DNA of 14,974 bases from a virus. Every line of letters begins with the position of its first letter. Positions within the stretch are counted from its first letter, which is position 1. The notes below the pieces were generated by a model that was not told where the DNA came from, made no database searches, and saw only the letters and a list, made by a program, of their open reading frames with translations. A program made the translations under genes and the position numbers. Location: UHGV virus genome UHGV-0084874. One strand, 5' to 3'. Of this stretch, positions 906 through 14,974 are shown one piece after another.

Positions 906-998
906 CCTGCTAATCGCCTGATGCTTTCTTTTTCAGCAACGGGAAAGCAACAACCACCACACCCACCAGCCGCCCATTTACCACAAATAAAAAAGCCT

Positions 999-1196
999 TC
1001 ACTGCGGAAGGCGTCTGTAACAACCGAACTGATAGTCTGCCAGACCCGCCATAACCAGCTGGGTCAGTATTAACTGGCAGCGTTCGCGTGAAAGGTAAGT
1101 ATTCTGCGCTATCTCCCCGACTGTCGCCGGTTCGGTAACTCTTAATTCATTAAACACTACTCTGGCGGTTTCTGTCATATCCTGCTGTTTTAGCAT
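999..1196 (-). CDS. Hypothetical small protein (~65 aa), possible winged-helix DNA-binding fold
   Basis: From ORF 999-1283; start re-assigned to the ATG at 1194-1196 (MLKQQDMTETARVV...) with a GGGA-type RBS ~8 nt upstream. The segment VGEIAQNTYLSRERCQLILTQLV looks HTH-like. No family recognised. Confidence 0.35.
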   Translation of the reverse strand: MLKQQDMTETARVVFNELRVTEPATVGEIAQNTYLSRERCQLILTQLVMAGLADYQFGCYRRLPQ

Positions 1197-1316: not shown

Positions 1317-1340
1317 ATAAAAAACCCGCCTGACGGCGGA
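1317..1340 (-). terminator. Intrinsic terminator (leftward)
   Basis: Stem ccgcc/ggcgg (1326-1339) with loop tgac; the minus strand then reads guuuuuua (plus 1317-1324). Confidence 0.45.
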
Positions 1341-1661
1341 TTTAAGCTATGTGGCGAAGTAACCACTCTTAACATGGTATTTATTTTTTTACGATCGTAA
1401 AGCATTCTGGAAAAAATTTTTAAGACTTACATCATGCTTTCATAACTTGAGCGCCGTATATAGCCACTGAACGGGAGCTGGTAAATAAGATTCCCCTCAG
1501 ACACGAACAGCCATCTAAGTATGGAATTGCAAGACCAATGAAACTTGATGTTTCTTAAGCAATCTTCAAACAACAAACAGCCTCGTTACAGTTGTCAAGC
1601 TATCTTGACGCCATTAGAAACGATGATGAAAATAGACACTCCTACACACAGAGGATATATC

Positions 1662-2819
1662 ATGGAAAACTTTGCAAATAAGTTAAAATCTCACGCAGAG
1701 CATGTTGCAAACATGGGGTGCTTCTGTAATACAGAGGAAACAACCAAACAGGCATTAATCATGCCTTTTCTAGATATTTTAGGCTTTACTCCATACGACC
1801 CACGAAAAGTGAAGGCAGAGTATAGCGCAGACTTCCCAGGGGTAAAGATTAACGAACGAGTTGATTACGCTTTATTTTGTCATGATGTTCCCGTGATGTT
1901 TATTGAAGCAAAATCATTTTCAGAAAAAATTGACAATCATTGCCCACAGCTTTCTAGATATTTCAACTCTACCCCAGAAGTCACCATTTCTGCTATAACA
2001 AATGGAATTGAATGGCGTTTTTTTACGGATCTAAAACAAAAAAACATTATGGATTCGTCTCCTTTCTTAAAATTAAGAATGGACTCACTTAACGATTCAG
2101 ATATTTCACAGTTATTCCGCTTCAGATATGACAAATTTAAGCCAGAGGCATTAAGGACGCTTGCAGAGGAAAGCGTCTATCTAAACGCATTCACAAAAAC
2201 CATAAGCTCAAGTCTTAGAGAGGTTGATCCTGAATTTGTCAGATATGTTGCCAGTCGTTCAAATATCGAGCGTCAACTAAACCAGCGATTCCTTGAATCT
2301 GTCACGCCACTGGTCAAACAAGCTGTAAAACGAGCAGTAAGTGCCATGGTGGTTTCTGGCCTTTCAACACAACCACCTACAGAATCTGCAGAGGATGTGG
2401 AAAAGTCTTCTGTAGATACCGATATCGTCAATGAAGATAACCCCAATATAATAACCACAAAGAAAGAATTAGAACTTTTCGAAAGAATAAAGCAAATCAT
2501 TCAAACAGAAGATAATATTGAATACAAAGATACCGAATCATACTTTGGAATTCTTTTAGATGGAAAAAGTAATAGATGGATTTTAAGATTTTACGACAAA
2601 AAATCATCCTTTATCCTGCTACCGATATCGTTCAACGAAATTCAATTAAACGAAATAAAAAGGGCTAGACTGGAAACTGATGGTCGAAAAATCCACATAA
2701 CAAATCCAGAAGACATACTGCGTATATCTGGATTAATTCTAGATGCGTTTGAGTATGTAAAAAACGATGACAATTTCAGGAGAGGGACAAAAACAACTCT
2801 CTCAGAAAACATCGAATAA
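1662..2819 (+). CDS. PD-(D/E)xK nuclease-domain protein (type I restriction HsdR N-terminal-like fold) with an uncharacterised ~200-aa C-terminal region; candidate defence moron
   Basis: 424-codon ORF in markedly AT-rich DNA, far longer than chance allows there. Start re-assigned to the ATG at 1662 (MENFANKLK...), which has a GAGGA RBS 8 nt upstream. The N-terminal segment ...TKQALIMPFLDILG...VDYALF...VMFIEAKSF... gives the E / D / E-x-K pattern of HsdR_N-type nucleases. It is on the opposite strand to all flanking phage genes. Confidence 0.75.
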   Translation: MENFANKLKSHAEHVANMGCFCNTEETTKQALIMPFLDILGFTPYDPRKVKAEYSADFPGVKINERVDYALFCHDVPVMFIEAKSFSEKIDNHCPQLSRYFNSTPEVTISAITNGIEWRFFTDLKQKNIMDSSPFLKLRMDSLNDSDISQLFRFRYDKFKPEALRTLAEESVYLNAFTKTISSSLREVDPEFVRYVASRSNIERQLNQRFLESVTPLVKQAVKRAVSAMVVSGLSTQPPTESAEDVEKSSVDTDIVNEDNPNIITTKKELELFERIKQIIQTEDNIEYKDTESYFGILLDGKSNRWILRFYDKKSSFILLPISFNEIQLNEIKRARLETDGRKIHITNPEDILRISGLILDAFEYVKNDDNFRRGTKTTLSENIE

Positions 2820-2892
2820 ATTAGACTATAAACAACACCCAACTTACATGTCCGGTGTTCCAATCCCGACGCAAATATTTCTAATGTGTGGG

Positions 2893-2922
2893 AATATAGA
2901 CCCGGACAATGTATCTAGTCAA
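2893..2922 (-). promoter_or_regulatory. Candidate late promoter (pR'-like) just downstream of the Q-like gene
   Basis: On the minus strand: TTGACT (plus 2917-2922), 18-nt spacer, TATATT (plus 2893-2898), beginning 5 nt after the Q stop codon. Position matches lambdoid Q-pR' organisation. The 18-nt spacer is suboptimal and no clear tR' lies downstream. Confidence 0.35.
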
Positions 2923-2926
2923 GCAC

Positions 2927-3310
2927 CTACATAATTCGTTCTACATATCTGTCCATCTCCAGCCGGATATCAAGCATCATCAAAATACCATCAATCACCC
3001 CTTCGGCTTTCTGAAGACGTTTACCAATGCAGGTGTCAGAGCATCTATGCTTACGCGCCAGACTCATAAAAGTCATTCCAATGACATAATAATCCACCAA
3101 TAAATCATGCAAATCACTGTTGTTTTTTTTCAAGCGGGCCATGCATCCACAAACGATCATCGCGTCATCGTCGCAACATTGCGGACGAGACTTAACTTTT
3201 GAAGAGATTAGTCCTTTAAATCCAGCAGCAATCGGTGACCAAGTCACATCCTCATGATTGTTTGCAACCCATGCTCCCCAGCGTTCGAGAACCATCTGAA
3301 TATCACGCAT
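2927..3310 (-). CDS. Late-gene antiterminator Q (phage 82 / DLP12 QuuD-like family)
   Basis: 127 aa from the ATG at 3308-3310 ([14 protein letters not shown]...), with a GGAG RBS 7 nt upstream; the ORF-track start at 3325 is a TTG. Cys-rich segment [17 protein letters not shown] is consistent with the zinc-binding Q family. Identification is from memory of the family, not a search. Confidence 0.6.
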
Positions 3311-3327: not shown

Positions 3328-4347
3328 TCAGGACAGCACACCAATCGCCAGCGCGCGATCGATAAAACGAAATATCAGCTCCAGTTGGGAACCATACTTC
3401 TCTTCAAATGCCACGGTATCCGCATGCAGTCCGTCATGGTGTTTTCTGCACAAAGGCAACACAAAAAGGTCATGCGCTTTTGTACCCATTCCACCCTGAC
3501 CATGACCAATCAGGTGATGAGGATCGTCGGCTGGCTTACCACAACATGCACACGGCTGCGTCTTAACCCAGCGCGTGTACTTTTCATTAACCCAGCGACG
3601 ACGTTTTGGGCGTAACATAAAAGACTCCGGCGACTCCGGATCCACTTTCAGCGCCAGCACCTTTTTCGCCTTATCCTGGATGATGCTGGTGGCAGTAACC
3701 GAAGGCACAAGGTCACTTTCCCGGGTGACAGACGGCACAACAGGCTTCGGTAATCTCAGTGCCTTACGGGCTGCACTTTCCGGTAAGGCATCCGCCAGGT
3801 CATTACGAATCAGCCACCAGCACAGTTCCGGCATTGTCACAACGTGACTGTCATCAAAACCAAGATCACGGCGCACAACAGATAACACCCAGCGGGCACA
3901 GTTATCCGTTGCCATTGCTTCCAGCCGTTCCGTGAACTGGTCACGGAGAAGATTGTCACAGTGCCAGCACAGACGGATTGCACCCGGCGCGTGTCGCATT
4001 GTGGTCATGTTCTCGCTGTGCCATCCGGAATGAGGCCACTGACAGCCCTTTTCACGAAGTAACCAGCTTTCAAGACATTCCACCCCACCAGTACAACGAA
4101 TAACTGCCTCATTGCGGAACACGGCCCGAACGGCAGGATCATCCGCCAGCGGTTGTGATGCTGCCGGAACGGCACCGCTGGCGAAAGATGAATAACGTTC
4201 CGGCTCAGGCTCCAGCAGGACACGCCCCTGCATAAACAGGGGCATCAGCTCTGAACCGGGCCTGAACAATACAATCCCCATACGCGGGGCAATTTCAGGG
4301 GTCAGCAGTGCTCTCACGGTCACCTCAGCAAACGATATTGAATGCAT
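3328..4347 (-). CDS. DUF968-family protein (YdfU/YfdN-like) with HNH-like Cys/His motif
   Basis: 339-aa ORF. C-terminal segment [44 protein letters not shown] is a CxxC...HH...HH arrangement typical of DUF968/HNH-like lambdoid proteins. Internal PSVT repeats. Confidence 0.65.
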
Positions 4348-10484: not shown

Positions 10485-11159
10485 ATGAAAACAGTCCATG
10501 ACATCCGGCGGTCTAACGCCAGAAAACTGAGAGATGGTGTTGGCGGGAATTCTTCCTTTGCCACCATGATTGATCGCGAGCCAACCCAGACCAGCAGGTT
10601 TATGGGAGATGGTGCTACTAAAAATATCGGTGACAGCATGGCACGGCACATCGAAAAATGTTTCGACCTGCCTGTCGGATGGCTTGATCAAGAACACCAG
10701 ACAACAAACATCACAAAAAAACCTGATGTTTCAATTACTAACAAACAAATAACGTTAGTCCCTGTCATATCATGGGTACAGGCCGGAGCATGGAAAGAAG
10801 TTGGCTATTCTGAGGTTGATTTGAGCACAGCAGAAACTTATCCCTGCCCTGTACCCTGTGGCGAAATGACTTATATCTTGCGGGTGATTGGTGATTCAAT
10901 GATTGATGAGTACCGCCCGGGAGACATGATTTTTGTAGATCCTGAAGTCCCTGCCTGCCACGGTGACGACGTTATTGCATTGATGCACGATACAGGCGAA
11001 ACCACCTTTAAGCGGTTGATAGAAGATGGAACACAGCGTTACCTCAAAGCATTAAACCCAAACTGGCCTGAACCTTACATTAAGATCAACGGTAATTGCT
11101 CTATAATTGGCACAGTAATTTTCTCAGGAAAACCAAGAAGATACAAAATAAAGGCCTAA
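10485..11159 (+). CDS. cI-like prophage repressor (N-terminal HTH, C-terminal LexA/S24 autopeptidase domain)
   Basis: 224 aa. N-terminus MKTVHDIRRSNARKL... is HTH_XRE-like. C-terminal domain carries an Ala-Gly cleavage site (VQAGAW), catalytic Ser in GDSM and Lys in TFKRL. Confidence 0.85.
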   Translation: MKTVHDIRRSNARKLRDGVGGNSSFATMIDREPTQTSRFMGDGATKNIGDSMARHIEKCFDLPVGWLDQEHQTTNITKKPDVSITNKQITLVPVISWVQAGAWKEVGYSEVDLSTAETYPCPVPCGEMTYILRVIGDSMIDEYRPGDMIFVDPEVPACHGDDVIALMHDTGETTFKRLIEDGTQRYLKALNPNWPEPYIKINGNCSIIGTVIFSGKPRRYKIKA

Positions 11160-11171
11160 TCAATATTTATA

Positions 11172-11194
11172 ACCTGCTTCGGCAGGTTTTTTTA
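11172..11194 (+). terminator. Rho-independent terminator after cI
   Basis: Stem acctgc/gcaggt (11172-11187) with loop ttcg, followed by ttttttt. Confidence 0.6.
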
Positions 11195-11197
11195 TAC

Positions 11198-11225
11198 TTG
11201 ACAATGTACCCTTGAGATACATAAT
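11198..11225 (+). promoter_or_regulatory. Candidate pL-like early-left promoter with overlapping operator (11204-11222)
   Basis: TTGACA (11198-11203), 16-nt spacer, CATAAT (11220-11225). Overlapping 19-bp site ATGTACC-CTTGA-GATACAT has the same architecture as the cI/cro intergenic operators. Confidence 0.5.
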
Positions 11226-11226
11226 G

Positions 11227-11825
11227 TATCTAAAAGAAACATGTCACAGGCAAGATTAAACAAAATTTGGTTGTAACACGGCGTATGGCACATGCGTCGT
11301 TAGCGGTCTGGGGACGTTAAAGGGGACAATCCACTCCTTGCTCGGGCAAACAAACCAGGTAGCCGGAATGTGCAAGTCAATGAGGATGCTGATAAGACGC
11401 CTAACCAGCGTGGCGATTCGGTTTGACGCCTGGGAAGAGACCAGGGTGCAACGATGAGGGCATTTATGGAACCGCGACAAAGTATGGTGCCGTAACTGGC
11501 TAAGTGCTCTCAGCGTTGTGGTAATCCGCGAAATGGCGCGGCGGTAAGTATGGCGGGGTTATTCCTTCCCCGTTGAGGACACCGGGTTGTCAGGTTGACC
11601 ATACGCTTAAGTGACAAGCCCACCACAACAGCCACTGCTTTGGCGGTACCAGTTTGTACACTTGCTTCCGGCTGGTACCGCTCTTTTTACAAAACAGAGA
11701 AGAGCATCACCGGACGACGGGCTCATAACCCAATCCATCCGGGCGGCTGCCACCGCAGGTGTTCTTCTCTGTTTTGTGGAGAAACCAACCGACCTTGCAG
11801 GGTCGATATGATGAGGAGCAGCAAA
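11227..11825 (+). promoter_or_regulatory. ~600-nt untranslated, highly structured leader between the pL-like promoter and the first early-left gene (candidate cis-regulatory RNA)
   Basis: No plus-strand ORF longer than ~28 codons with an RBS. Multiple GC hairpins (ccgcg-aaatgg-cgcgg; cgggg-ttattcctt-ccccg), a 10-bp stem hairpin followed by a U-tract (11643-11690), a 13-bp perfect inverted repeat (11691-11703 / 11764-11776), and a boxA-like cgctcttttta. Confidence 0.4.
11643..11690 (+). terminator. Candidate intrinsic terminator/attenuator inside the early-left leader
   Basis: 10-bp stem gcggtaccag/ctggtaccgc with 19-nt loop, followed directly by tctttttac. Its 3' side can instead pair with 11700-11705 (gctctt/aagagc), overlapping the next long inverted repeat. 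Confidence 0.35.
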
Positions 11826-12188
11826 ATGGCTAGCGAACGCAGTACTGATGTGCAGACATTTATCGGGGAGCTGGACGGCGGCGTATTTGAAACCAAAATC
11901 GGCGCAGTTCTCAGTGAAGTCGCTTCCGGTGTGATGAACACGAAAACCAAAGGTAAGGTCTCGCTCAACCTGGAAATCGAACCGTTTGATGAGAACCGTG
12001 TGAAAATAAAACACAAACTCTCATATGTTCGCCCGACTAACCGCGGGAAAATTTCTGAAGAAGACACCACCGAAACGCCGATGTATGTCAATCGCGGTGG
12101 TCGCCTGACTATTCTGCAGGAAGACCAGGGACAATTACTGACTCTTGCCGGTGAACCTGACGGAAAACTCCGCGCAGCAGGTCATTAA
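11826..12188 (+). CDS. yfdP: YfdP-like early-left protein (120 aa)
   Basis: ATG at 11826 (MASERSTDVQ...) with a GAGGAG RBS ~8 nt upstream. Length and position match the yfdP-yfdQ-yfdR-yfdS order recalled for CPS-53. The upstream in-frame extension from 11595 is rejected. Confidence 0.55.
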   Translation: MASERSTDVQTFIGELDGGVFETKIGAVLSEVASGVMNTKTKGKVSLNLEIEPFDENRVKIKHKLSYVRPTNRGKISEEDTTETPMYVNRGGRLTILQEDQGQLLTLAGEPDGKLRAAGH

Positions 12189-12253: not shown

Positions 12254-13078
12254 ATGTCTCAGAACTTAGACGCAACCGCAATTAATCAAATCCATGCCCT
12301 TATTTCTGCTCAGGGTGTTAATGAAATTATCAGTAAGATTGGTGCCGATGCTGTGGCATTGCCTGAGAATTTCCGCATTCATGATCTGGAAAAATTTAAT
12401 TTAAATCGCTTCCGTTTCCGTGGTGCGCTTTCCACTGCCAGCATCGATGACTTTACCCGTTATTCTAAAGATCTTGCAGATGAAGGCACCCGCTGCTTTA
12501 TCGATGCTGATAATATGCGTGCCGTCAGTGTGCTTAACCTGGGTACTATTGATGAACCAGGTCACGCAGATAACACCGCCACTCTCAAACTGAAAAAGAC
12601 AGCACCGTTCTCTGCCCTGTTGTCTGTTAACGGCGAGCGTAACTCCCAGAAATCACTGGCAGAATGGATTGAAGACTGGGCCGACTACCTTGTGGGCTTT
12701 GATGCTAATGGTGACGCCATTCAGGCAACAAAAGCGGCTGCGGCAATCCGTAAAATCACGATTGAAGCAAACCAGACCGCTGATTTTGAAGATAATGACT
12801 TCAGCGGCAAACGCTCCCTGATGGAATCTGTCGAAGCGAAGACCAAAGACATTATGCCAGTGGCATTTGAATTTAAATGCGTTCCGTTTGAAGGTCTGAA
12901 AGAACGTCCGTTTAAATTACGCCTCAGCATTATCACTGGCGATCGTCCTGTACTGGTTCTGCGCATTATTCAGCTGGAAGCGGTGCAGGAAGATATGGCT
13001 AACGAATTTCGTGATCTGCTTGTTGAGAAATTCAAAGACAGCAAAGTAGAAACCTTTATTGGTACTTTCACCGCCTGA
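12254..13078 (+). CDS. yfdQ: YfdQ-like protein (274 aa, DUF2303 family)
   Basis: GAGGA RBS 8 nt upstream. Length and synteny match E. coli CPS-53 yfdQ as recalled. Confidence 0.75.
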
Positions 13079-13205
13079 TTTCATTACTGCAAATGCCCCT
13101 GCGGGGGCATTTATGGAAACGTAATTAACTCAATAATCACCGGATGGTGAGGGCTTCCTTTTACCCAAATTCAGCGCGGTGCAGCGCATATACGTGGAGA
13201 ACAAA

Positions 13206-13742
13206 ATGTCATTTATTAAAACTTTTTCCGGGAAGCATTTTTATTATGACAAGATAAATAAAGATGACATCGTTATTAACGATATCGCGGTTTCCCTTTC
13301 AAATATCTGTCGCTTTGCCGGTCATCTTTCTCACTTCTACAGCGTCGCCCAACATGCGGTGCTTTGCAGCCAGCTGGTGCCGCAGGAATTTGCTTTTGAA
13401 GCGTTAATGCATGATGCAACAGAAGCGTATTGCCAGGACATCCCAGCTCCACTGAAACGCCTTCTTCCTGACTATAAACGGATGGAAGAAAAAATAGACG
13501 CCGTAATCCGTGAGAAATACGGGTTACCTCCTGTTATGAGCACGCCAGTGAAATATGCCGATCTCATTATGCTGGCAACCGAACGTCGCGATCTCGGGCT
13601 TGATGATGGCTCTTTCTGGCCTGTACTGGAAGGTATCCCGGCGACAGAGATGTTCAAAGTTATTCCACTGTCACCAGGCCATGCCTACGGGATGTTTATG
13701 GAACGTTTTAACGAGTTATCGGAGTTACGCAAATGCGCATGA
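13206..13742 (+). CDS. yfdR: YfdR-like HD-domain phosphohydrolase (178 aa)
   Basis: ATG at 13206 (MSFIKTFSGKHFYYDK...) with a GGAGA RBS. HD-domain-like His/Asp residues (AGHLSHFYSVAQHAV...MHDATEAY). Length and order match CPS-53 yfdR. Confidence 0.75.
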   Translation: MSFIKTFSGKHFYYDKINKDDIVINDIAVSLSNICRFAGHLSHFYSVAQHAVLCSQLVPQEFAFEALMHDATEAYCQDIPAPLKRLLPDYKRMEEKIDAVIREKYGLPPVMSTPVKYADLIMLATERRDLGLDDGSFWPVLEGIPATEMFKVIPLSPGHAYGMFMERFNELSELRKCA

Positions 13743-14095
13743 ATGTTTTCGAAATGGAAGGGTTTCTTCGCGGGAAATGTGTACCACGAGATCTGAAAGT
13801 GAATGAAACAAATGCTGAGTACCTGGTACGTAAATTCGATGCGCTTGAAGCTAAATGTGCGGCACTGGAAAACAAAATAATACCAGTGTCAGCTGAACTG
13901 CCGCCAGCAAATGAAAGTGTTCTGTTATTTGATGCTAACGGAGAAGGCTGGCTAATTGGCTGGCGTTCTCTCTGGTACACCTGGGGACAAAAAGAAACCG
14001 GAGAATGGCTGTGGACATTTCAGGTCGGGGACCTTGAAAACGTCAATATCACTCACTGGGCAGTAATGCCGAAAGCACCGAAGAATAAAAAATGA
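13733..14095 (+). CDS. yfdS: YfdS-like protein (120 aa, DUF551-like C-terminus)
   Basis: Start overlaps the yfdR 3' end and has a GGAG RBS. Trp/Gly-rich C-terminus (GEGWLIGWRSLWYTWGQKETGEWLW). Confidence 0.65.
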   Translation: MRMNVFEMEGFLRGKCVPRDLKVNETNAEYLVRKFDALEAKCAALENKIIPVSAELPPANESVLLFDANGEGWLIGWRSLWYTWGQKETGEWLWTFQVGDLENVNITHWAVMPKAPKNKK

Positions 14096-14295
14096 GCGTG
14101 ATAAAAACTCATACAGGAATTGTTATCACCCGAGACGGTCCGCAGGTAAAAAAACTGCACCAGACAAAGCGGATGTGGGTCGTCGGAAAAAACGAGTTTT
14201 ACCACAAAGAAACCGGACGCCGCCACTTTGCAGAAAATACTCGCCGCCGACTGCTGATCGATACCATCAAGCCTATCGAGGTGAAGCATGTTTAA
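14092..14295 (+). CDS. Hypothetical protein (67 aa)
   Basis: ATG overlaps the yfdS stop (ATGA), so it is translationally coupled; basic small protein. Confidence 0.45.
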   Translation: MSVIKTHTGIVITRDGPQVKKLHQTKRMWVVGKNEFYHKETGRRHFAENTRRRLLIDTIKPIEVKHV

Positions 14296-14527
14296 ACAGA
14301 ACGAAAAATCTATCGCTCAAATTGCTGAGTATATCCCGCGTGCGTGCCGGGATATGCAGTTGCAGGAAGCCAAAGCACGCCTGGAGAAAAAAATTGCGCT
14401 CTATATCGATGACGGCTGTGATGCCGCCGTTCTTAACGCGGCGTTCGCGCCAGCTCTTAACAGTCATACGCGAAAGTCTTTTTTTTCGTGCATCACAGCG
14501 CAGATCCGTAAAGGAGGCAACCAGTGA
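14288..14527 (+). CDS. Hypothetical protein (79 aa)
   Basis: GAGGTG RBS 4-5 nt upstream of the ATG; overlaps the previous ORF's end. Confidence 0.45.
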   Translation: MFKQNEKSIAQIAEYIPRACRDMQLQEAKARLEKKIALYIDDGCDAAVLNAAFAPALNSHTRKSFFSCITAQIRKGGNQ

Positions 14528-14974
14528 GCAACATTAACTATCAGGTACTGCGTGAAAAGGCAGAGAAAGCAACTAAAGGAAGCTACATCGTAGGGCATAC
14601 ATCTGTTAACCAGCACGGCAATTTAACAGGAGTTTTTGTTTGTCAAAAATGGAAAGGAGAACCCGGTGGCGTAATTGCAGAATGTCACGTTAACTGCCTG
14701 GTTGAAACAGATGCTCAGGCTTATGCAAACGCTGAATTCATAGCAGAGGCTAACCCGGCTACCGTGCTGGCACTGCTGGATGAACGGGAAAGAAACCTGC
14801 AATACATCAAAAGCCGCGATCAGGAGAACGAGGATATTGCGCTAACGGTAGGGAAGCTGCGCGTTGAGCTTGAAGCAGAAAAACAGCGGGCAAAAGTTCT
14901 ATTTATGGAAAATGCTCGGCTTAAGTCAGGCATAGCCGGTCTGATACACCTCGGTATTCGATATGCAGATGTTG
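14524..14974 (+). CDS. Ead/Ea22-like protein, 5' partial (runs off the window end)
   Basis: GTG at 14524 overlaps the upstream stop (GTGA) with a strong AAGGAGG RBS 8 nt upstream; reading frame is open to the window end. Absent from the ORF track because no stop is reached. N-terminus VSNINYQVLREKAEKATKGSY... resembles the Ea22/ead family as recalled. Confidence 0.5.
   Translation, partial: MSNINYQVLREKAEKATKGSYIVGHTSVNQHGNLTGVFVCQKWKGEPGGVIAECHVNCLVETDAQAYANAEFIAEANPATVLALLDERERNLQYIKSRDQENEDIALTVGKLRVELEAEKQRAKVLFMENARLKSGIAGLIHLGIRYADV

Follow-up and report, generated by a model that had tools for sequence, protein, structure and literature searches.

The DNA analysed here, called the window below, is a stretch of 14,974 nucleotides from the virus genome UHGV-0084874, and it is 99.9% identical to part of a lambdoid prophage that adjoins mlrA in Escherichia coli S1-CAM-02-A. 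The minus strand of this prophage carries a cro-like gene, Rha, replication genes, a DnaB-type helicase, a DUF968 gene (3328-4317) and the antiterminator gene Q (2927-3310). To the left of the window the same strand continues, in locus L001, with a frameshifted DUF6645/SASA gene and with holin, lysozyme, terminase and capsid genes; in locus L007 the genes found downstream on this strand are stx2AB. Since these late genes are co-directional, leftward transcription from the region after Q runs in the late direction. The 107-nt gap between Q and the nuclease gene that faces it, together with its surroundings, contains the following features.

2927-3310, minus strand: antiterminator gene Q, 127 amino acids, Q21/Q933W/QuuD family (PF06530, Q21 structures, QuuD identity, phrog_79)
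2893-2922, minus strand: candidate late promoter pR', -35 TTGACT (2922-2917), 18-nt spacer, -10 TATATT (2898-2893) (direct reading, scan and conservation)
2885-2887, minus strand: predicted transcription start, 6-8 nt past the -10 (promoter geometry; the covarying 5' hairpin of the relatives starts here)
2874-2879, minus strand: candidate sigma-dependent pause element AATATT, -10-like, at about +8 to +13 (alignments)
2850-2870, minus strand: homologue of leader hairpin 2, GTCGGGATTGGAACACCGGAC, the last block common to the ORF6N-type relatives, with the cassette junction next to it (alignments)
2826-2859, minus strand: weak hairpin AACACC...GGTGTT (2859-2834, dG -11.2 kcal/mol) followed by the interrupted U tract G-UUUAUAG, the sole terminator-like feature in the gap
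1544-2850, plus strand: inverted AT-rich cassette REARRANGEMENT with the nuclease promoter region, the nuclease gene and a 31-nt 3' flank (GC 30-43%; junctions from alignments including the Salmonella locus)
1662-2819, plus strand: gene for a stand-alone PD-(D/E)xK nuclease-domain protein, 385 amino acids, D68...E82-x-K84 (HSDR_N/HSDR_N_2, phrog_4225, translation)
1605-1633, plus strand: candidate nuclease-gene promoter TTGACG-17-GAAAAT (scan, 9/12 match; region conserved in Salmonella)
1324-1341, minus strand: first canonical leftward terminator after pR', ATCCGCCGTCAGGCGGGT then TTTTTAT (d = +18.7)
995-1196, minus strand: conserved 65-aa ORF (999-1196, phrog_331) with its terminator (1012-995), the next co-directional unit of the late leader region

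The RefSeq annotation of L001 marks the DUF6645, YdfR and tail-region genes, all outside the window, as frameshifted or partial (12998-14930, 11711-12052 and 1-2491). With some late genes annotated as frameshifted, the S1-CAM-02-A prophage itself may be defective and is perhaps non-inducible.

The antiterminator gene

The Q protein matches PF06530 over the full length of the model (positions 1-118 of 118; E 1.1e-53, 180.6 bits) and is assigned in PHROG to phrog_79, 'anti-termination protein Q-like'. The similarity to the Q21 structures 6JNX and 6P18 is distant (E 9.9e-7, residues 8-89). PF06530 is the Q21/Q933W family, while the Q proteins of lambda and of phage 82 belong to separate families (10.1101/651190); thus phage 82, which the first-pass annotation had proposed for comparison, is off target. 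As to its other proposal, DLP12, Q is 86% identical to QuuD, but the DNA downstream of quuD is non-homologous and fails to align with the window region. The DLP12 pR' was therefore ruled out as a comparison sequence.

Protein alignments show that Q is a mosaic: residues 1 to ~84 are closest to DLP12 QuuD, and residues ~85-127 are near-identical to the Q of ORF6N-type E. coli prophages with the same pR'. By analogy with Q21, the C-terminal part should contain the DNA-binding helices, and the mosaic suggests that this presumably DNA-binding part travels with its promoter.

At the same genomic position a sister prophage in E. coli G6/7 (L008, 2944-6142) carries a different inverted pair, consisting of an AAA_15/AAA_21 ATPase and a DNA cytosine methyltransferase; the ABC-type ATPase is annotated as 'ATP-dependent nuclease'. 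The pair ends 10 nt from the stop codon of a different Q (117 aa, 45% identical), too close for a promoter to fit between them in that locus.

The candidate late promoter

On the minus strand the Q stop codon TAG (2929-2927) is followed by GTGC, TTGACT, 18 nt and TATATT. The first-pass annotation had reported this motif and its spacing correctly but placed it 5 nt after the stop codon, the actual distance being 4 nt; it had also rightly put the 3' end of the plus-strand nuclease gene at 2819, where the TAA occupies 2817-2819. The hexamers match the consensus at 10 of 12 positions, the best score in the left 4.4 kb, tied with one other site. Such a motif is not rare in itself: the window has 4 sites with at least 10/12 matches, where Markov-1 random sequences give 2.3 +/- 1.6, and for any particular 40-nt interval on one strand the chance of containing such a site is about 0.003. 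The case for a promoter rests, therefore, on position and conservation. Two more sites of this quality lie on the plus strand (11080-11226) around the end of the cI-like ymfK (10485-11159), namely TTAAGA-16-TATAAT from 11080 and TTGACA-16-CATAAT from 11198.

A 211-nt query across the gap retrieved 54 E. coli genomes, 3 with identical sequence and the remainder 83-89% identical, the identity to the latter running from the end of Q to window position ~2848-2860. In all seven BLAST-selected E. coli relatives that are 83-89% identical here, neither hexamer varies and the spacing stays at 18 nt; the blocks GCTTGACy, ACATTGTCyGGG and CTATATT are unchanged in these alignments while the early transcribed bases vary. 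The Salmonella enterica locus L077 has TTGACG-18-TATATT, with a spacer that differs from that of the window at 9 of 18 positions. The spacer block TCCGGGnC beside the -10 is conserved in all three groups of sequences and is a candidate for the Q-binding element. The Q-binding element of phage 21, two TGAGCA direct repeats (PMC6606751), is missing from the pR' spacer. A blastn search of 50,697 phage records gave homology only in the Q coding sequence, from 2952 on (2945 in one record), with promoter and leader unmatched, and a scan of GTDB representative genomes with the promoter pattern gave no match. Judged by its place and its conservation, the site after Q is very probably a real late promoter, and the alignments identify it as the positional and sequence orthologue of pR' for this Q type.

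The leader and tR' in relatives without the cassette

We aligned and folded 18 unique non-cassette leaders from the relative genomes and IMG/VR contigs, and 22 entered the terminator scan. The 52 IMG/VR loci were selected by the promoter pattern itself and were used only for what follows the promoter, not for promoter conservation. Terminators were scored in the d'Aubenton-Carafa form with ViennaRNA energies, a score that serves for comparison only.

A 5' hairpin whose CAAAAT loop never varies is present in all 18 leaders; in three of its base pairs both partners have changed. A second hairpin (CGGG...CCCG) follows, and then tR', a GC hairpin with a T6-7 tract that occurs with several different compensating stems, one pair showing 8 double changes. 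The tR' scores lie between d = +5 and +23 in 22 of 22 non-cassette variants, at 93-110 nt from the start of the -35. Further on, a co-directional ORF with an ORF6N domain starts 230-291 nt past the -10 in the non-cassette loci, except for one with an IS insertion. The reverse ORF that follows the non-cassette promoter in L074 was considered as a second inverted accessory gene and rejected, as it encodes an IS transposase. By its layout, the leader of the relatives can be regarded as a textbook Q/pR'/tR' unit with a leader RNA of ~80 nt, like lambda 6S RNA or StxS (PMC7547250). Such pR' promoters are constitutive, and their transcripts end at tR' in lysogens (PMC7547250).

The leader in the window

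Both tR' and ORF6N are missing from the window. The 5' leader hairpin is degraded, and the CAAAAT of the relatives is replaced, at equal distance from the -10, by AATATT (2879-2874), which has 4 of 6 matches to a -10 element, including A2 and T6. The concept of a -10-like pause element working with a Q-binding element comes from earlier work (PMC6606751, 10.1101/651190), and the altered early leader of the window could impair Q loading.

The hairpin at 2859-2834 scores d = -21 to -42, which is sub-canonical compared with the range of tR' in the relatives, and in the sister locus L016 a T-to-G change breaks its stem. All four variants of the cassette-linked leader (at least 13 distinct records) are without a terminator, their best score being d = -21, and all of them face the convergent nuclease ORF. 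The statement of the first-pass annotation that no convincing intrinsic terminator lies between the promoter and 2819 thus holds for canonical terminators, this hairpin being the best candidate in the interval. Our scan found no leftward terminator with d >= 0 between 2893 and 1342; the first canonical one (1341-1324) lies ~1.55 kb from the predicted start, beyond the nuclease gene, and is one of five with a positive score (1341-1324, 1012-995, 668-651, 455-434 and 181-164). We also considered that GGGTGTTGTTTATAGTC (2840-2826) might be what is left of tR', namely its 3' arm and T tract, after a deletion of 18-21 nt. This reading was dropped because L077 places the stretch in the 3' flank of the nuclease cassette, with the T7 tract on the other side of the cassette.

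An antisense RNA across the nuclease gene would meet stops in all frames. Its C/G ratio reaches at least 1.5, a Rho-type composition, in the segments 2796-2707, 2604-2503, 1914-1801 and 1740-1651, but overall G slightly exceeds C. Rho suppresses or removes untranslated antisense RNA (PMC12360218) and may act on this one as well, for which the base composition offers weak support.

The inverted cassette and its origin

Homology of the window to the relatives ends at ~2850, just past hairpin 2, and returns at ~1423, which corresponds to the stop codon of their ORF6N gene. The cassette that lies in between is ~1.3 kb long and is poorer in GC than its flanks, which have 50-55%. The Salmonella locus L077 clarifies its origin. 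The nuclease encoded there is 90% identical to that of the window; on the promoter side both leader hairpins are intact, and the sequence then passes into the nuclease 3' flank at the junction seen in the window; on the far side of the inverted gene there are a T7 tract with a weak stem, the ORF6N leader and the ORF6N gene, a stretch that aligns with the E. coli sequence from tR' to ORF6N. Since the cassette of L077 abuts this tR'-like T7 tract and ORF6N, the cassette is most readily understood as having inserted into the pR' leader, in the interval between hairpin 2 and tR', and the lineage of the window has lost tR' and ORF6N in addition. The contrast in GC content and the 78% identical homologues in tail operons of another prophage type indicate that the cassette is foreign.

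The ATG of the nuclease gene is preceded by a purine-rich AGAGGA. A perfect inverted repeat, GTCAAG-ctat-CTTGAC (1594-1609, plus strand), overlaps the -35 of the candidate nuclease promoter, and Salmonella keeps the arms TGTCAA/TTGACA at a different spacing; the repeat could be an operator or a pair of back-to-back -35 hexamers. After the nuclease gene, no plus-strand terminator with d >= 0 was found between 2700 and 4400.

The nuclease protein

The only domains found in the nuclease are HSDR_N and HSDR_N_2 (residues 25-128), and its PHROG assignment is phrog_4225, 'endonuclease'. RefSeq names the product 'type I restriction endonuclease'. An identity as HsdR was ruled out: the protein has 385 aa against ~1000 aa and is without the motor (SF2 ATPase/translocase) domains. 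Its score with the HsdR equivalog model is 17 bits, where the cut-off is 729, and the annotation shows neither hsdM nor hsdS near the gene. A search of PADLOC-DB 2.0 returned no family at E <= 0.01 and a sequence search of the PDB no relative; the AlphaFold2 model is poor (pLDDT 62.9, pTM 0.39), and Foldseek found nothing for it in the PDB at E <= 0.001. Homologues of ~385 aa are widespread in Enterobacterales prophages, and distant members of the family are labelled 'predicted type IV restriction endonuclease' by one source. A defence role is at most a reasonable guess.

Homologues of the gene in L005 and L006 (5002-6195, ~78% DNA identity) and in L076 (85% protein identity) lie co-directionally amid the baseplate genes of a tail operon in a different prophage type, from which it appears that the nuclease gene moves between phage modules as an independent unit. 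In L005 a hairpin with a T-tract, AAAAAACCCGCGAAAGCGGGTTTTTT, stands directly after the stop codon of the homologue (read from the sequence, unscored).

Spread of the module

In the assembly collection, 286 index blocks contain exactly this nuclease protein. Each of the 24 contigs that we read has the order Q, 107-nt gap, convergent nuclease gene and 65-aa ORF, and the DNA further downstream varies among them (a methylase, IS66, an intact DUF6645, a co-directional holin gene). Across 181 nt around the gap the copies, which come from at least a dozen distinct records, show 0-1 differences. In L017 the module precedes an intact DUF6645 and co-directional holin-region genes, the holin gene running off the end of the locus, and the clinical isolate JNEC-KY177, which carries an Stx2 prophage, has an identical module followed by a methylase, three tRNAs and stx2AB. 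A diverged form of the module occurs in Salmonella. Three cassette-bearing loci (L023, L040 and L057) have the nuclease ORF split in two while promoter and leader are intact.

Discussion

Our data favor, with a probability that we put at about 70%, the following reading: pR' at 2922-2893 serves a Q of the QuuD/Q21 family, the inverted cassette at ~+36 takes the place of tR' and ORF6N, and the Q-modified polymerase crosses the nuclease gene in antisense direction. It is known that Q binds an element between the -35 and the -10 when the polymerase is paused at a -10-like element, and that terminators are then ignored (PMC6606751, 10.1101/651190). Q21-type Q alone gives strong antitermination, without NusA (PMC12360218). 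From the anatomy of the locus we infer promoter activity, pausing, Q loading and an effect on the nuclease, as follows. RNA polymerase would start near 2886 and probably pause at the -10-like element at ~+8 to +13, the place at which Q would be loaded. In the ancestral leader two hairpins would have been followed by tR' and the co-directional ORF6N gene; the cassette would have joined, inverted, just past hairpin 2, downstream of all that Q should need for loading. After induction the Q-modified polymerase would run ~1.2 kb antisense through the nuclease gene and then pass the five canonical terminators to reach the lysis and structural genes, or stx2 in the sister phage. Nuclease expression should then fall, through head-on collision and through antisense RNA. 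In the lysogen, the weak hairpin at 2859-2834, or else Rho acting on the untranslated antisense RNA, would probably cut unmodified pR' transcripts short, and the nuclease transcript, having no terminator, would cross pR' and Q.

The first-pass annotation had claimed that late transcription is convergent with the nuclease gene and antisense to it. The architecture bears this out: pR' is orthologous to that of the relatives, tR' is missing and the genes downstream are co-directional. As the late genes lie downstream on the strand of pR', Q-dependent late transcription must cross the nuclease gene in antisense. The further claim, a shut-off of the nuclease by late transcription, is plausible from this layout. 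The timing may be less strict than had been proposed, since pR' is constitutive (PMC7547250) and tR' is gone; antisense transcription may thus occur in the lysogen too and need not be confined to lytic growth.

One would argue that tR' is not lost but cryptic, as the first-pass annotation had offered as an alternative. The hairpin at 2859-2834 would then terminate most unmodified pR' transcripts at ~+55 to +61, a short 6S-like RNA would be made in the lysogen, and antisense transcription would require Q, which restores the timing that had been proposed originally. The hairpin does stay a candidate: it has a dG of -11.2 kcal/mol and is followed by G-UUUAU, it is present in the minimum-free-energy fold of the leader, and, ending 7-15 nt before the nuclease stop, it lies where a terminator would make sense. 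However, the gap holds no canonical terminator; the score of this hairpin (d = -21 to -42) is far from the +5 to +23 of tR' in the relatives, its U tract is interrupted and starts after a G, the substitution in L016 breaks the stem, and the Salmonella version has no comparable hairpin here. We therefore regard a cryptic tR' as unlikely, though worth keeping in mind. Chance hexamers without any promoter activity are hardly credible. It is true that sites of at least 10/12 matches occur ~2.3 times per window-sized random sequence and that an 18-nt spacer is suboptimal, but this site occupies the usual position of a lambdoid pR', its hexamers and spacing are kept in the E. coli relatives and in the Salmonella locus while neighbouring bases vary, and in the relatives a covarying leader and a terminator follow at fixed distances.

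Another possibility is that the late unit is a decayed relic, with a dead promoter or Q-loading site in a defective prophage and a convergent layout that has no regulatory meaning. The 5' leader hairpin, conserved and covarying in the relatives, is indeed degraded in the window, tR' and ORF6N are lost, and the annotation of this genome gives DUF6645, YdfR and a tail gene as frameshifted or partial. Yet the 127-aa Q is intact, as are the promoter hexamers in every copy read, and the near-identity of the copies (0-1 mismatches in 181 nt) extends over at least a dozen distinct records with differing downstream contexts, among them a clinical isolate in which the module stands ahead of an intact stx2AB and L017 with its intact DUF6645 and holin-region genes. 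Decay, which had also been raised in the first-pass annotation, is thus quite improbable, the module being intact in an Stx2 prophage as well. The interference could also run in reverse: a terminator-less nuclease mRNA would cross pR' and continue antisense to Q, occluding pR' and damping leaky Q expression in the lysogen in the manner of lambda paQ, and the balance would flip once pR-driven transcription of Q is strong. The absence of a plus-strand terminator with d >= 0 between 2700 and 4400 and the position of the nuclease stop, just 74 nt from the -10 of pR', are in line with this; by contrast, the nmpC strand in the nmpC-quuD gap of DLP12 and the tail-operon homologue have a hairpin with a T-tract (read, unscored). 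The argument is purely architectural, however, the candidate nuclease promoter is a 9/12 match, and Rho could stop the untranslated 3' extension. We consider reverse interference doubtful, although it is compatible with our preferred reading and not exclusive of it. A speculative and rather improbable picture is that of a two-way switch, with the nuclease gene lying antisense within the leader that Q antiterminates. The lysogen's nuclease transcript over pR' and Q would suppress leaky late expression, and after induction the Q-modified polymerase would silence a nuclease that threatens the replicating phage DNA; the layout would have been kept in E. coli (including Stx2) and Salmonella prophages because of the coupling of a defence gene to the lysis-lysogeny decision.

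Under the preferred reading, antisense passage of Q-modified polymerase, the window is a variation on the familiar lambdoid layout rather than something conceptually new. As in the late cassettes of the Q21/Q933W type, it has a PF06530 Q that matches the Q21 structures, a promoter right after the Q stop, a -10-like element early in the transcript and late, lysis or stx genes downstream on the same strand, and its relatives have the full pR'-leader-tR' unit. It departs from them in having no tR' within ~1.5 kb and an inverted gene in the leader. Phage 21 itself differs in its TGAGCA repeats, which the pR' spacer here does not have, and in its Q, to which that of the window aligns over ~80 residues only (E 1e-6). 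With the StxS pR'-tR' unit (PMC7547250) and lambda 6S RNA the ORF6N-type relatives share a ~80-nt leader that has a structured 5' hairpin and a terminator; in the lineage of the window this short-RNA unit is destroyed, the 5' hairpin being degraded and the terminator absent. DLP12, the cryptic prophage of E. coli K-12, offers a precedent: quuD, whose product is 86% identical to our Q, is followed by the convergent porin gene nmpC and then by essD/rrrD/rzpD, so that a lysogen-type accessory gene lies between Q and the lysis genes, opposed to both, and late transcription crosses it in antisense. There, however, the DNA after quuD is non-homologous, the accessory gene encodes a porin and not a nuclease, and the nmpC strand has a hairpin and T-tract in the nmpC-quuD gap (read from the sequence, unscored). 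Convergent interference in temperate phages is represented by lambda paQ, which opposes Q, and by lambda bor, which is antisense to the late transcript and is a further precedent for an antisense gene in such a transcript. In these cases, too, the units stand face to face, and the polymerase that is stronger or antiterminated should prevail; the gene of the window that would be overrun differs in sitting inside the antiterminated leader itself. Lambda paQ is mentioned in PMC7547250. What is distinctive of the window is an inverted gene within the pR' leader, together with the loss of tR'.

The locus would be a natural case in which an accessory, probably defence-type, gene was placed backwards between the Q-loading site and the terminator, and it suggests that a Q21-family leader can be replaced from ~+36 onward. 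The loss of tR' would remove the element that ordinarily ties late expression strictly to Q near the promoter and shift control to terminators at least 1.5 kb downstream and possibly to Rho. As the module lies upstream of stx2 in a clinical isolate, it could influence both basal and induced toxin expression. The locus also provides a simple system for asking whether an antiterminated polymerase silences a convergent prophage gene in lytic growth.

One more feature lies in the late leader region, in the stretch from the 65-aa ORF to the DUF6645 gene. An Rfam search had no match in 2820-2926, and its sole matches lie further left: three tandem copies of the STnc100 sRNA family (RF02076) on the minus strand, at 152-361, 427-600 and 639-844. 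Two of them score 165.6 and 141.4 bits, both above the gathering score, and the middle copy reaches just 30.1 bits. Each copy closes with a strong terminator (181-164, 455-434 and 668-651).
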